Positions 15,898 through 23,892 of a stretch of DNA of 46,921 bases are shown piece after piece (the first letter of the stretch is position 1; every line of letters starts with the position of its first letter). A program made the position numbers and the translations under genes. The notes beneath the pieces are model-generated. The model saw only the letters and a list, made by a program, of their open reading frames with translations. It did not search any database and was not told the DNA's origin. The DNA comes from a bacterium (GTDB taxonomy: Bacteria; Patescibacteriota; Saccharimonadia; Saccharimonadales; SZUA-47). The stretch lies in contig JAUIKH010000002.1 of assembly GCA_030430915.1 (NCBI GenBank), positions 1 to 46,921 of the forward strand, read 5' to 3'.

Positions 15898-16323
15898 CTA
15901 TCGCCTTGAACGTCTACGTAATTCGGCAATCTTAAGCCTTGATGCTTGTCGATCCACAATTGCCTGTGCTTTGTCTAAAGATACCTGATCTTTTGCTTCT
16001 GAACGCAACTGTTTAGCACGTTTTAGTGCTTCTTCAGCTTCTTTAGCGCTAACTTCTGAATCTTTGTCGGCTTCATCTACCAACACTCTAACTGTACCCC
16101 CCGAAATCTCAATAACACCACTGTCTATGGCATAGTTTTCCATCATGTCGTCTGGATGATTATCCTTTTTTCTGACACTAATTACACCAGTTGAAGCTAT
16201 GCTAACTAACGGTGCATGGTTTTTGAACACTGCTATTTGTCCTTGTGGGGTAGGCAATAATACTTCGTGCACAGAATCACGTAATTTTACACCTGTTAGT
16301 GTTACTAATTCAAAATGAATCAT
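15898..16323 (-). CDS. atpC: F1 ATP synthase subunit epsilon
   Basis: MIHFELVTLTGVKL...GQIAVFKNHAPLVS...GGTVRVLVDEA, followed by a C-terminal helical hairpin. Confidence 0.9.
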   Translation of the reverse strand: MIHFELVTLTGVKLRDSVHEVLLPTPQGQIAVFKNHAPLVSIASTGVISVRKKDNHPDDMMENYAIDSGVIEISGGTVRVLVDEADKDSEVSAKEAEEALKRAKQLRSEAKDQVSLDKAQAIVDRQASRLKIAELRRRSRR

Positions 16324-16496
16324 TATCTATTCTTTCTATAATGTTGAAAATTATTAAAAATCTTCTTACCTGCCATAGCTACTCCTGCCATAGCTACAGC
16401 TCCAATAGCCGCATTGAAGGCTACAAATTTTATTGCTTCTTTATCTTCTACCATTTTAGGCAAAGGTACTATATCGATACGTTCTGATGAAACCAT
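16323..16496 (-). CDS. Unannotated 57-aa single-TM micro-ORF between atpD and atpC
   Basis: My own translation is [57 protein letters not shown]. Its ATG overlaps the atpD stop (TAATG at 16494-16498). Its TAA overlaps the atpC ATG (TAATG at 16321-16325). It fills the spacer exactly. Confidence 0.5.
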   Translation of the reverse strand: MVSSERIDIVPLPKMVEDKEAIKFVAFNAAIGAVAMAGVAMAGKKIFNNFQHYRKNR

Positions 16497-17878
16497 TATT
16501 TGACCTCGCCTATGGAACCTTTCATATAAAATGCACCTTCAGGTTTATTGTCATGCTTACCATCTAGTATTTCACGGAATCCTTTGATTGTGTCTTCTAG
16601 TTTGACGTACTGACCTGGTATACCAGAGAATACTTCGGCTACGAAGAACGGTTGAGTTAAAAACCTTTGTATTCTTCTAGCACGTGAGACGATTTTTTTA
16701 TCTTCTTCAGATAACTCTTCCATACCTAAAATAGCGATAATATCTTGTAAATCTTTATATCTTTGTAAAATTCTTTGTACTTCTCTGGCTACGTTATAGT
16801 GCTCTTCACCAACGACTTCTGGGTCTAAAATAGTTGAATTAGAATCAAGCGGATCAACAGCAGGGTAGAGACCTTGCTCGGTTAAAGCACGGTTAAGCGC
16901 GATTGTTGAATCGAGGTGAGAGAATGTTGTAGCAGGGGCTGGGTCTGTAAAGTCGTCAGCTGGAACATAAACAGCTTGAATAGAGGTAATTGAACCTTTT
17001 TTAGTACTGGTGATTCGTTCTTGCAAGCCACCCATTTCTTGAGCTAAGTTCGGTTGATAACCAACAGCAGAAGGTAATCTACCTAATAGGGCTGACACTT
17101 CTGATCCAGCCTGAGTAAATCGGAAAATGTTATCTACGAATAGCAATACATCTTTACCCTCATCACGGAATCCTTCAGCAATAGTTAGTCCAGATAAGCC
17201 AACTCGCAAACGTGCACCAGGTGGTTCGTTCATCTGCCCAAAAACAAGGGATGTTTTGTCAAGTACTCCTGACTCTTCCATTTCATAGTATAAATCATTA
17301 CCTTCACGAGTTCTTTCACCAACCCCTGCGAATACTGAGTTACCACTATGGAATTTAGCTATGTTGTTGATTAGCTCAGTAATTAGCACAGTTTTACCAA
17401 CACCAGCCCCTCCAAATAGACCAACCTTACCACCCTTAGTAACTGGACAGATTAAATCGATAACTTTAATTCCAGTTTCCAAAACCTCAGTCTTACCTGA
17501 CAAATCAGCAAGGGTAGGTGGCTCCCGATGAATTGGAGCTTTTTTACCTTTTGGTGCTGGTTTATCGTCAATTGGATCACCTACCACATTGAACATACGT
17601 CCTTGTGTTTCAGCTCCAACAGGAACTTGTACTGGTGCTCCTGTGGCAATAACTTCTGTGTCTCTGGTCAAACCATCTGTACCACCAAGAGCTACAGTTC
17701 TAACGCTGTTTTCACTCAAGTGTTGAGCTACTTCTAGATATACGGTCTTTCCATCTAACTTTAAAGTTAGTGCGTCATAAATAGCTGGCAATTCTCCGTC
17801 AAAGTCAACATCAACAACCACACCAACTACTTGGCTGACTTTACCTACGTTTGTTTTTTCTTTTGTTGCTGTACTCAT
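16496..17878 (-). CDS. atpD: F1 ATP synthase subunit beta
   Basis: Walker A is GGAGVGKT; also present are [19 protein letters not shown] and [12 protein letters not shown]. An AAAGGAG SD precedes it. Confidence 0.97.
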
Positions 17879-17932
17879 AATTCTCCTTTAATTCCTTTCT
17901 GATTGTTCTGATGTTTATTTATCTGGATTAAA

Positions 17933-18304
17933 TTATTCTTCATACTCATATTGGAACCTCTCTCTTTCTTCTGCAATCCCAAGCCTATGCCCTACAATCA
18001 GTCCACGGTGAGCTACACTATAAATAATGTTTTCAATAAGTTCATCTACTTCGCTCTTGGTCTGTTCATCAATGGTTGATATTCCTAAGCCAAGAACATT
18101 TATTATAGACCTTCTTGATGCAAGCTCAGTAATATAATCAACCGTATCCTTAAATTGGTGCAAAACATCATCTGTTATCATATCAGCAACATCATCACTA
18201 TTTACCGCCTCTTCTGGAGAAGAATTTGCTATTGGAAACATACGACCCCAAGCTTCTGCCGCATTGTCATTTGATAATAATTCCATATTTGTTGGATTTT
18301 TCAT
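17933..18304 (-). CDS. Hypothetical acidic protein (123 aa) embedded in the atp operon
   Basis: It is on the same strand as the operon. Its ATG overlaps the stop of the upstream 155-aa ORF (TAATG). There is no TM segment and no recognisable motif. Confidence 0.6.
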   Translation of the reverse strand: MKNPTNMELLSNDNAAEAWGRMFPIANSSPEEAVNSDDVADMITDDVLHQFKDTVDYITELASRRSIINVLGLGISTIDEQTKSEVDELIENIIYSVAHRGLIVGHRLGIAEERERFQYEYEE

Positions 18305-18771
18305 TATTTCATAGCCTCTGTTATTTCTTTTGTTAGACCTAGCTGTTTGGCTTCAGTAAATCTCTGGGCATAGTCAGGTGCCCAGTCGCTCCTCAAGAAA
18401 GAGTCCATGCTAGTTTTTTTATCAGCCTCAGGAACTTTTAAGTTATTCTTACTTCTGTATAAAAAATCAGCAAACCTAACATCATCAGATATTTCATCCA
18501 CCACTAAAGACCCTACATCAATAGCCAACTCTCTTGTTATAGTCTCTAGATCGTTTTCAGGAAATAACTTTTCTGATTCTTTTTTATAATGCTCATCAGA
18601 TCTAAGCGCACTGCCTAATGAAATGTTACCAGCATGAAACACTATGTCATCAGAATATCTGCTTATAACTCCGTCTATTCTTCTATTTCGTCCATGAAGG
18701 TTCGCTAATAAATCTATAGTCATGTCATTTATTAACTCACGTGACTCATGAACATTTGAGGTTGTCATCAT
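18304..18771 (-). CDS. Hypothetical protein (155 aa) embedded in the atp operon
   Basis: The start overlaps the atpG stop (ATGA/TGATG at 18766-18771), with a GGAGG SD inside the atpG 3' end. No motif recognised. Confidence 0.6.
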   Translation of the reverse strand: MMTTSNVHESRELINDMTIDLLANLHGRNRRIDGVISRYSDDIVFHAGNISLGSALRSDEHYKKESEKLFPENDLETITRELAIDVGSLVVDEISDDVRFADFLYRSKNNLKVPEADKKTSMDSFLRSDWAPDYAQRFTEAKQLGLTKEITEAMK

Positions 18772-22515: not shown

Positions 22516-22633
22516 CTGTTATATTATATCCTTTCTGGCTGCAATAACCACGACCGCTTCAAATCTTTTGAAAAGTTCGTCATTATTGCATATTACTCTC
22601 TATGTTTTGTTAATCGATTGAAATTTGTTGGGT

Positions 22634-22739
22634 TATTCGCTGATGAAGTACAAGGCAGAGGGCGGAGCTCAAGCGAGCTGTATTAGCTATACAGTGAGCG
22701 AGCACCGCAAACCTCTAACGCAGTAATTCGCTGCGAATA
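22634..22739 (-). other. G+C-rich nested-helix RNA element in the atpE-atpF spacer
   Basis: Four nested helices were read by eye. P1 is 22634-22640/22733-22739 (TATTCGC/GCGAATA). P2 is 22657-22665/22705-22716 (AGAGG+GCGG with an AAA bulge). P3 is 22667-22671/22695-22699 (GCTCA/TGAGC). P4 is 22678-22683/22689-22694 (CTGTAT/ATACAG). Total is about 27 bp in 106 nt. Confidence 0.4.
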
Positions 22740-22742
22740 TCC

Positions 22743-22994
22743 TTACAAAAGGAAGGCACCAAGTAGGAAGGCAAGCAACGCCGTAACCTCAATCATCGCT
22801 GCGATGATGATGATTTGACTTGCGGCTTTTCCAGCTTCTGGGTTACGGCCCAAAGCTTTCATGTAGTTTGAGCCAACAAGAGCCAAACCAATTGCAGCAA
22901 GAGCTAAAGCTAGTCCAAGCATAATGCTTTTTGACCAAGCTTGTGCAACTTCTACGCTGAATTCGTTTGCTTCAGCTAATATTGTGTTTAACAT
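22743..22994 (-). CDS. atpE: Fo ATP synthase subunit c
   Basis: It is a two-TM hairpin with the polar loop GRNPEAG and the ion-binding carboxylate in AAMIEVTALLAF. SD is AAGGAG. Confidence 0.9.
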   Translation of the reverse strand: MLNTILAEANEFSVEVAQAWSKSIMLGLALALAAIGLALVGSNYMKALGRNPEAGKAASQIIIIAAMIEVTALLAFLLGAFLL

Positions 22995-23058
22995 TTTTTC
23001 TCCTTAGGACATTGTCCATATGGTTACTTTTAAAAGAACTTTTTTAGGGTTCTTATTA

Positions 23059-23892
23059 TCACGCCGTTAGCTCCTCGACCTTTTGAGCTGATGGTTCATG
23101 ATCTTCCTCAGGGTGCGCATGAGATATAGCTAAGCTTAGGTATGTAGCTGAAAGCACGGTAAACACATACGCCTGTATACCGGCTACAAGAAGTTCAAAT
23201 AAAATAATTGGTATTACTGCAATTGGAGTACGACCTCCACTCAATATAAGGCTTGTGAAAACAGCTATTAGTATCTCGCCAACAGCGGTATTCAAAAACA
23301 GCCTTAGAGCTAAGCTCAATATTCTGGTAAACTCACCAAAAACTTCTAATATGCCAATGAAAAAGTTAATCGGGTTCAGAGGTTTATCGCTAAAATAGTG
23401 CTGGAAATGACCCTTAAATCCCTGAGCTTTAATAGACAAAACTTGAACTGCAATAATTGCAATCACGGCCATAACAAGAGTCCCGTTAAGATCGGCTGTA
23501 AACGGTCTAAATATCGGAATACTATCAACTGTTATGCCAGGCCCAACAATTGGTATTAAGCCTAAAGTGTTACTAAATAAAATAAAAAGAAAAAAAGTTG
23601 CAAATAAAGGAGCATACTTATATGCCTGCTTACGATTACCGAAAGCTCCTTCTAAGACCCCAATAACGAATTCAACTACCACTTCAAGAACAGCTACAGC
23701 TCCTTTTTGAGCCTTAACTCTGGACTTCTTGGCAAGCATTATTAATACAATAGCCATAAATGCAGCAACAATTAGACCGTAAAGCATTGAATTTGTTACA
23801 GTCACACCACCAATTTCAAATACTTTTTCAGCCTTCAATGACACATGAATGTCACTGTTTGATGACGATAGAATAGATAAGGTATTTAGCAT
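23059..23892 (-). CDS. atpB: Fo ATP synthase subunit a
   Basis: It is polytopic and carries the essential Arg motif LSLALRLFLNTAVGE. It is the first gene of the operon. Confidence 0.9.
   Translation of the reverse strand: MLNTLSILSSSNSDIHVSLKAEKVFEIGGVTVTNSMLYGLIVAAFMAIVLIMLAKKSRVKAQKGAVAVLEVVVEFVIGVLEGAFGNRKQAYKYAPLFATFFLFILFSNTLGLIPIVGPGITVDSIPIFRPFTADLNGTLVMAVIAIIAVQVLSIKAQGFKGHFQHYFSDKPLNPINFFIGILEVFGEFTRILSLALRLFLNTAVGEILIAVFTSLILSGGRTPIAVIPIILFELLVAGIQAYVFTVLSATYLSLAISHAHPEEDHEPSAQKVEELTA

Follow-up and report, generated by a model that had tools for sequence, protein, structure and literature searches.

Small, variable open reading frames at the F1 gene junctions of ATP synthase operons in Saccharibacteria

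Introduction

The ATP synthase is highly conserved and the order of its F1 genes is textbook knowledge, which makes variable co-translated genes between those for alpha, gamma, beta and epsilon unexpected. The known accessory genes of F-type and N-type operons, atpI, atpZ and atpQ/atpR, encode small membrane proteins and lie ahead of atpB. The window analyzed here is a stretch of 46,921 nucleotides (nt) from a member of the Saccharimonadales (GenBank assembly GCA_030430915.1, contig JAUIKH010000002.1, positions 1 to 46,921), and on its minus strand, at 15898-23892, it holds an ATP synthase operon in which four small open reading frames (ORFs) stand between the F1 genes. What are these ORFs, and do they have anything to do with the enzyme? 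Herein, we report that they are the local case of "junction ORFs", a class that is found across the clade in the atp operons of Saccharibacteria: about half to two-thirds of these operons carry small, fast-evolving genes at the same three junctions.

Results

Layout and composition of the F1 part of the operon

In the ORF list, the minus-strand order is atpB-E-F-H-A-[109 aa]-atpG-[155 aa]-[123 aa]-atpD-[57 aa]-atpC, and the extra ORFs were named X109, X155, X123 and X57 after their length in amino acids (aa). Genes for a, c, b, delta, alpha, gamma, beta and epsilon are present on a single strand in the order atpBEFHAGDC, confirming an F-type ATP synthase operon, and Pfam families match six of the subunits (b, delta, alpha, gamma, beta and epsilon). 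The F1 part, all on the minus strand, begins with atpA (F1 alpha, 514 aa; 20013-21557; Pfam ATP-synt_ab 9e-81, ATP-synt_ab_C 4e-40). The acidic X109 (19684-20013; called as an ORF and from codon usage) fills the junction between atpA and atpG (F1 gamma, 307 aa from the ATG at 19691; 18768-19691), which matches Pfam ATP-synt over its full length (1.4e-83). Behind atpG come X155 (18304-18771; ORF and profile search), a member of a small "post-gamma" protein family, and the acidic X123 (17933-18304; ORF and codon usage), the last ORF ahead of atpD. A spacer of 54 nt (17879-17932), in which direct reading reveals a strong AAAGGAG Shine-Dalgarno sequence, leads to atpD (F1 beta, 460 aa; 16496-17878; ATP-synt_ab 6e-73), and the basic X57 (16323-16496; ORF) fills the junction with atpC (F1 epsilon, 141 aa; 15898-16323; ATP-synt_DE_N 2.7e-14). 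The contiguous atpA-G-D-C of canonical operons is therefore not found here, as gaps of 321, 889 and 172 nt hold the four ORFs. The order also differs from the N-type order atpDCQRBEFAG, and the window has no membrane Q/R-like genes ahead of atpB.

Neighboring genes overlap at six of the seven boundaries. TAATG joins stop and start codons at atpA-X109, X155-X123, atpD-X57 and X57-atpC; the atpG-X155 overlap is ATGA; and X109 and atpG share 8 nt, ATGGCTAG. Only X123 and atpD, separated by the 54-nt spacer, do not overlap. A good Shine-Dalgarno of its own also precedes atpG. For atpC there is none, and its start codon sits on the stop codon of X57. Inside the operon, promoter- and terminator-like sites show no excess over the shuffled expectation, and no recombinase is found in the operon or its flanks. 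The 46.9 kb hold no second conserved multi-gene operon. A preliminary description of this DNA had given the gene order and ORF coordinates, which the ORF list, Pfam and homology bear out, and had claimed six stop/start overlaps, all of which are present on direct reading of the sequence.

The in-frame codon log-likelihood of all four extra ORFs matches that of the atp genes, and their GC1>GC2>GC3 periodicity is the same. Asp and Glu make up 19-20% of X109, X155 and X123, whose isoelectric points (pI) are 4.2-5.0 and in which no hydrophobic segment was found. X57 has a pI of 9.9 and one hydrophobic stretch of about 20 Ala, Gly, Val and Met residues (Kyte-Doolittle 19-residue maximum, 1.93). For comparison, the pI values of the window gamma, delta and epsilon are 8.5, 9.4 and 8.0. 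By pI and hydropathy, the four are thus what the preliminary description had said, three Asp/Glu-rich proteins without transmembrane segments and one peptide with a single hydrophobic stretch. It had also recognized no family for any of them, and searches against Pfam and NCBIfam (both at E up to 1), PADLOC and PHROGs agree, as none of the four ORFs matched a family. Specifically, the Pfam and NCBIfam profiles for AtpI, AtpZ, zeta/DUF1476, IF1, Atp11 and Atp12 matched none of the four; PADLOC and PHROGs gave no match that would indicate anti-phage defense or phage origin; and the four did not match the 23S_rRNA_IVP/bAvd families (PF05635, PF22296) either.

Occupancy of the F1 junctions in related operons

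Related loci were collected through atpG (80 from genomes and 80 from metagenomes) and through members of the X155 family (six); nearly all of the 166 loci, denoted by L-numbers, are from Saccharibacteria. Junctions are abbreviated A-G (alpha-gamma), G-D (gamma-beta), D-C (beta-epsilon), F-H (b-delta) and H-A (delta-alpha). The closest gamma among the fetched loci is only 72-76% identical to the window gamma, and a tblastn search of the first 80 loci did not detect any of the four window ORFs. The synteny that the preliminary description proposed to examine across Saccharibacteria was found at the level of the junctions. A gap of at least 100 nt is present at A-G in 67 of 145 loci (46%), at G-D in 89 of 132 (67%) and at D-C in 59 of 105 (56%); the corresponding counts are 5 of 76 at F-H and 4 of 80 at H-A.

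Same-strand ORFs occupy the expanded gaps, running from the upstream stop codon to the downstream start codon. Of the 124 gaps of at least 150 nt, 90 are covered to 90% or more by a single forward open frame, compared with 9 on the reverse strand. Mean coverage in shuffled gaps was 0.46, and in 62 of the 90 gaps not one of 100 shuffles attained the observed coverage. Overlaps like those of the window are common (44/67 have -8 where atpG begins, 51/88 have -4 behind atpG and 34/59 have -1 behind atpD), and a Shine-Dalgarno-like motif lies upstream of 75-89% of the junction ORFs versus 11% of random positions. Occupancy at one of the three junctions is correlated with that at the others (Fisher p 2e-7 to 3e-3): of 94 fully resolved operons, 28 have all three inserts and 23 have none. 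With an insert total of 1382 bases, the window falls in the top tenth.

The junction ORFs are mostly 40-200 aa long, acidic and soluble, with a pI below 5.5 in 79-88%. Hydrophobic segments among those of the relatives occur solely at D-C, in 6 of 39, including the close relatives L001, L002 and L072; hydrophobic Ala/Gly-rich character is all that X57 has in common with the D-C ORFs of close relatives. The 265 ORFs that tile the gaps fall into 189 sequence clusters. Each of the multi-member clusters listed occurs at one junction only, except 23S_rRNA_IVP, and weak hits join ORFs of the same junction in 85% of cases versus a background of 31%. A few loci go beyond this layout. Coupled ORFs at F-H and H-A (up to 807 nt) occur in L046, L003, L019, L060 and L072, and of these L046 is the closest relative of the window. 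The D-C junction of L020 measures 3786 nt and includes an opposite-strand ORF of 376 aa, so that the operon is truly split there.

These data bear on the possibility that the ORFs are no more than chance open frames in non-coding spacers. Their shortness, and the lack of homologues for three of the four window ORFs, would suit such an artefact; however, the atp-like codon signature, the exact stop/start overlaps, the strand-specific open frames that shuffling fails to reproduce, the pN/pS below 1 in close pairs and the conserved X155 family (both described below) make it most improbable. Judged from these features of the sequence, the four ORFs are genuine protein-coding genes, predicted to be translated on the atp mRNA.

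X155 and its relatives behind atpG

When X155 alone was searched against 5.8 billion proteins, only X155 itself was returned. A family profile was then seeded with two positional homologues found among the fetched loci, and its search of 1.84 billion representative proteins yielded 34 family members. The position was checked in eight genomes, namely the window, L008, L024 and five reached through members P0017, P0023, P0034, P0043 and P0045. A family member lies inside the gamma-beta gap in all eight, and in seven it is the next ORF 3' of atpG, either overlapping that gene by 4 nt or abutting it; in L085, the family member lies within a longer ORF array in that gap. The array of L085 (1-1833) has a second conserved G-D family ahead of two small ORFs and the X155 family member, at least four ORFs in all. 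This second family (...EWRQ..D.D.FWAPLPGS.ET.IEIAWDKARLDA...) is found in L019 and L085.

The X155 family has the motifs DM, G87 and WAPDYAxRF, with W130 near-invariant and Y134 invariant. An AlphaFold2 (AF2) model built from a 35-sequence alignment has four helices and a hairpin, with a predicted local distance difference test score (pLDDT) of 84.9 and a predicted TM score (pTM) of 0.81; it replaces an earlier run with 5 sequences, which had a pLDDT of 55 and made the fold search meaningless. Searched against PDB folds, the model had no match (best E 1.5, TM 0.28) and showed no likeness to a solved F1-binding regulator, and the family matched neither PDB sequences nor viral folds. The family thus adds a confidently predicted fold without a solved relative. 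For X155, the profile and fold searches proposed in the preliminary description gave a family of 34 proteins and no fold relative in the PDB. X155 was also considered as a duplicate of atpG, which was rejected, as the hhalign probability is 0.8% and only the last 13-21 nt are in common; profile-profile comparison likewise gave no relation to any other atp subunit. Given its predicted folded, helical structure and its position in the gamma-beta gap wherever checked, X155 is the strongest candidate among the four for a putative F1-directed role.

The other three ORFs have little kin. The sole, weak candidate relative of X109 (pI 4.2) is the A-G ORF of L022, with 29% identity and collinear motifs, and a profile of the two returned only those two inputs from a database search. 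X123 (pI 4.4) weakly matches (domain E 1.4e-3, 7.5 bits; motif ...SVAHRGLIVGHRL) a nine-member "pre-beta" family, which holds the same slot, just ahead of beta, in other loci; no relatives of X123 were found in the metagenome scan. In X57, Tandem Repeats Finder detected a 15-nt in-frame tandem repeat (16369-16409, minus strand) that encodes VAMAG-VAMAG; this in-frame duplication shows that junction ORFs can lengthen in place.

A repeated sequence at the gene borders

A short module, GAGGCTATGAAATGATG, covers the end of atpG and the start of X155 (18766-18782, minus strand). The repeat search found a second copy, GAGGCTATGAAATAATG, at the end of X155 and the start of X123 (18302-18318, minus strand), and a pattern match found a third, diverged copy, GAGGCCATGAAGTAATG, at the end of atpF (...KEAMK) and the start of atpH (21956-21972, minus strand). 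For the 13-mer GAGGCTATGAAAT, which extends to a repeat of 21 nt, the window has exactly two occurrences against an expectation of 0.00; the degenerate module pattern matches only these three sites in 46.9 kb. Because the second copy forms the 3' end of X155, the protein ends in ...EITEAMK, resembling the gamma C-terminus ...EITGGAEAMK. The first G-D ORF of other genomes, to whatever family it belongs, also ends in a copy of the 3' end of its own gamma gene, synonymous choices included; the copy covers 32 of 33 nt in L086 and 16-27 nt in L049, L072, L046 and L016. Flanking repeats above the 99th percentile of a cross-locus control were found solely at the first G-D ORF (5 of 162 ORFs).

Target-site duplication was considered as a general rule and rejected, as repeats flank only the first G-D ORF and the module is present at atpF-atpH too. 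The latter suggests that it may be a shared translation-initiation module. As for its origin, the junction could have been duplicated when an ORF was added, gene conversion could have acted, or selection could have favored a good Shine-Dalgarno/stop/start module. Taken further, the F1 junctions might serve as a cradle, in which the module is duplicated, the trapped ORF is kept open for the sake of the next F1 gene and drifts into a folded, F1-directed protein; the X155 family, with a tail that tracks the gamma tail of its own genome, would be the example. We consider this scenario unlikely on present data. If true, operon-embedded de novo gene birth would be directly observable here, and it would yield lineage-specific regulators of a rotary ATPase.

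Selection on the junction ORFs

The strength of selection was estimated as the nonsynonymous to synonymous ratio (pN/pS) in three close genome pairs, using analogous junction ORFs in relatives rather than the four of the window, whose clusters contain no true relative; the most similar gamma found anywhere is 76% identical to that of the window. The pooled junction ORFs had a pN/pS of 0.38 (P under neutrality about 1e-3) at a synonymous divergence of 0.042, and the flanking atp genes a pN/pS of 0.03 at 0.138. The junction proteins are thus under purifying selection, about ten times weaker than that on the atp genes, and this difference speaks against conserved stoichiometric subunits. The preliminary description had held that neutral evolution, or absence from close relatives, would tell against a function. 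Neutral evolution is not what the analogous ORFs show. No recognizable counterpart of X109, X123 or X57 was found in the closest available relatives, and the X155 family is conserved but patchy.

Between species, synonymous sites are saturated, as synonymous divergence (dS) exceeds 1 already at 89% gamma identity. Homologous pairs of junction ORFs at 75-85% gamma identity number 0 of 19, 2 of 35 and 1 of 25. Given an omega of 0.3-0.4 and saturated synonymous sites, loss of homology at 75% gamma identity is expected from relaxed constraint, and missing homology as a general proof of replacement was accordingly rejected.

The findings so far also bear on a different proposal, in which the junction ORFs are coupling spacers or proto-genes. 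Here, selection would maintain an open, translated frame, for coupling, subunit ratios or the avoidance of polarity, and the peptide itself would matter little; ORFs would be born when the junction module is duplicated and would lengthen through in-frame duplications and drift, and a few, such as the X155 family, would mature into genuine proteins. The extreme sequence turnover under strictly kept open frames and overlap geometry fits this well, and so does the fading of homology in the pairs just counted. A uniformly acidic, non-hydrophobic composition is what harmless peptides would be expected to have. The module, three times in the window, the near-identical repeats of 16-33 nt on either side of the first G-D ORF in six or more other genomes, and the 15-nt duplication in X57 agree with the proposal, as does the lack of a Shine-Dalgarno at atpC, and compact operons work without junction ORFs. 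However, a pN/pS significantly below 1 (about 0.1 for one A-G ORF) and an X155 family with conserved residues and a confident fold speak against it; atpG and atpD, having good Shine-Dalgarnos, need no upstream translation; and the lost homology is explained by omega and saturation without neutrality. On balance, spacers or proto-genes appear possible but doubtful.

Exchange of occupants and foreign genes

One pair of loci permits a closer view of turnover. The gammas of L019 and L024 are 89% identical. Their A-G ORFs are alignable throughout at the DNA level, with an omega of about 0.11, and their D-C ORFs are 42% identical, with an omega of about 0.4. At G-D, the interior DNA is unalignable with sharp borders, and the ORFs belong to different families. 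Replacement of an occupant is demonstrated only where two conserved families share a slot, as in L019 versus L024.

In two other pairs, L026/L112 and L125/L127, synonymous divergence is about 0.22-0.28 in the atp genes and 0.03-0.06 in the intervening junction ORFs; in L125/L127, dS is 0.22 for atpG and 0 for atpC. The alternation points to mosaic recombination that is limited to the conserved genes.

Pfam families matched 5 of 140 junction ORFs of at least 60 aa, and all five are 23S rRNA intervening-sequence/bAvd four-helix bundle proteins. In total, such genes sit in D-C, A-G and G-D junctions of 8 loci, including L007, L032, L052, L060, L070 and L087. Their proteins (63-70%) are better conserved than the gamma beside them (53%), and the genes are not tightly overlapped with their neighbors and occur at more than one junction.

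This raises the prospect that junction ORFs are hitch-hiking cargo, for which atp junctions would be safe harbors in a strongly, constitutively expressed operon; the cargo could be immunity, anti-defense or host-interaction factors that are pressed to diversify, exchanged by recombination via the atp genes or the module. The mobile-type 23S_rRNA_IVP/bAvd genes with their high conservation argue for it, as do the sharply bordered G-D exchange between L019 and L024, the patchy X155 family that is incongruent with gamma, and the direct repeats at the flanks of the first G-D ORF; the synonymous divergence of 0.042 in junction ORFs versus 0.138 in atp genes indicates mosaic histories. On the other hand, the listed multi-member families other than 23S_rRNA_IVP are junction-specific, which fits vertical descent better than free mobility. 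Further points against cargo are that the four ORFs have no PADLOC or PHROGs matches and no recombinase lies in or beside the operon, that the IVP genes, unlike other junction ORFs, are not tightly overlapped, and that occupancy is limited to F1 junctions and spares the equally expressed Fo/stalk junctions. We therefore regard cargo as an improbable explanation for the class as a whole. The hitch-hiking cassette that the preliminary description offered as its alternative holds for 23S_rRNA_IVP in other genomes, but no window ORF matches that family.

The Fo part and the surroundings of the operon

The Fo/stalk part, atpB-E-F-H (21566-23892, minus strand), is without inserted ORFs. Its genes, all on the minus strand, are atpB (subunit a; 23059-23892) and atpE (subunit c; 22743-22994), identified by homology (tblastn and phmmer) to relatives in which the genes carry the Pfam ATP-synt_C family, and atpF (subunit b; 21958-22515) and atpH (delta; 21566-21958), identified by Pfam family matches. 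The atpE-atpF spacer of 227 nt (22516-22742) contains no minus-strand ORF longer than 31 aa; in several relatives this spacer is 160-335 nt, and L083 has a called ORF of 67 aa there. The delta subunit has only 130 aa, and those of relatives are likewise short (125-136 aa). Because its match to the 172-position OSCP profile starts only at position 62 (62-171), the window delta seems to be missing most of the N-terminal alpha-binding domain.

Just downstream of atpC, a promoter agrees with the sigma-70 consensus at 12 of 12 positions (TTGACA, 16 nt, TATAAT; 15839-15866, minus strand). It precedes a gene for a 520-aa Na+/H+ exchanger (14252-15814) with an acidic, His-rich N-terminal extension. 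Farther on are a gene for a cadmium-type carbonic anhydrase repeat protein (CDCA; 12844-13758), which is also found near the operon of the distant relative L083 (7854-8450), and an accompanying MIP channel gene (12128-12772). CDCA and MIP near atp may form a conserved neighborhood for ion and pH homeostasis. According to a preprint, a novel pilus operon (pam) and the ATP synthase genes are consistently found together in genomes of the candidate phyla radiation (CPR) (bioRxiv 10.64898/2026.03.03.709456).

Discussion

What the junction ORFs do

Among the explanations considered, we tentatively place first, at somewhat less than an even chance, that the junction ORFs encode co-translated, weakly constrained, F1-directed accessory proteins. 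It is ranked first because the ORFs are restricted to F1 junctions, because their families are locked to particular junctions, and because one of these, the post-gamma family, is predicted to be folded. According to this model, ribosomes ending alpha, gamma or beta would re-initiate at the overlapping start codon, and because of this re-initiation the junction proteins would be made wherever and whenever the F1 subunits are made. As no Shine-Dalgarno precedes atpC, this gene is probably dependent on translation of X57; atpD keeps its independent, strong Shine-Dalgarno behind the 54-nt spacer. The junction proteins would then be partners in the assembly or regulation of the adjoining F1 subunits, dispensable and evolving fast; the acidic ones might, for instance, pair with the basic gamma, delta and epsilon.

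Several observations weigh against an accessory role. X109, X123 and X57 have no recognizable homologue in the 166 loci, so that three of the four window ORFs are effectively orphans; the nearest relatives, with gammas 72-76% identical, carry unrelated ORFs or none at the matching junctions; and 148 of the sequence clusters are singletons. The X155 family is itself rare and patchy (3 of 80 genome loci, 0 of 80 metagenome loci), and the pairwise identities of its members (20-33%) are unrelated to those of gamma. Likeness to a known ATP synthase subunit, chaperone or inhibitor was found neither with Pfam for all four nor with profile and PDB comparisons for X155. It is gene position, and that only, which points to an ATP synthase role of any kind, and the presence of 23S_rRNA_IVP genes in atp junctions means that position by itself does not prove such a role; physical association of the junction proteins with F1 is putative. 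Finally, the 23 compact operons among the 94 show that the enzyme runs without junction proteins, and a cultivated saccharibacterium can do without the entire ATP synthase when it grows on its host (PMC10633639). From the dispensable enzyme and the many compact operons it follows that the junction products are modulators at most, and not core subunits.

Of the roles put forward in the preliminary description, that of lineage-specific accessory subunits survives in part: the ORFs have the marks of genuine, co-translated, F1-locked genes, but the orphans, the patchy X155 family and the weak constraint do not fit conserved stoichiometric subunits. A role like that of epsilon, zeta or IF1 found no backing, as Pfam, profile comparison and the PDB revealed no resemblance.

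These organisms may use their ATP synthase forward or in reverse, or may not need it at all (PMC10633639). If the junction products bind F1, they would be new lineage-specific regulators or assembly factors of this enzyme. If only their translation matters, the operons offer a natural experiment on how coupling shelters and matures new genes.

Comparison with known systems

We know of no report of anything comparable to a clade-wide, three-junction, hypervariable pattern of ORFs in atp operons. No description of it was found in the searchable literature, and it is apparently undescribed so far. An unidentified reading frame at the gamma-beta junction does have a precedent in the "gene X" that Tybulewicz, Falk and Walker reportedly described in 1984 between gamma and beta in the atp operon of Rhodopseudomonas blastica; that is an isolated alphaproteobacterial case. 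The likeness to atpI, atpZ, atpQ and atpR is that these are small, of uncertain role and co-transcribed with the ATP synthase genes, and that the core enzyme is independent of them. They differ in forming recognizable, widely conserved families, whereas the window ORFs stand between F1 genes and are mostly soluble, acidic and hypervariable.

The F1 inhibitors and chaperones, namely the epsilon C-terminal domain, zeta (DUF1476), IF1, AtpTheta and Atp11/Atp12, are small and often helical F1 binders, and X155 with its predicted helices and gamma-like tail recalls them. However, the window ORFs have no sequence match to them and the X155 family no match in the PDB. Known F1 regulators other than the epsilon domain are usually encoded elsewhere in the genome.

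The 23S_rRNA_IVP/bAvd genes use the same atp junctions in 8 loci, and they illustrate that these junctions tolerate foreign small genes; they lack tight overlaps with their neighbors and are found at multiple junctions, unlike the window ORFs, which do not match them. Phage morons and integron cassettes are likewise variable small genes at fixed slots, with short direct repeats at some borders. The junction ORFs appear to differ from them in having no promoter or terminator of their own, no integrase and no attC, and in being translationally coupled and locked in position. Collectively, the known kind to which the window belongs is that of atp operons with extra genes; what sets it apart is the unusual evolutionary behavior of these genes and at least one new protein family.

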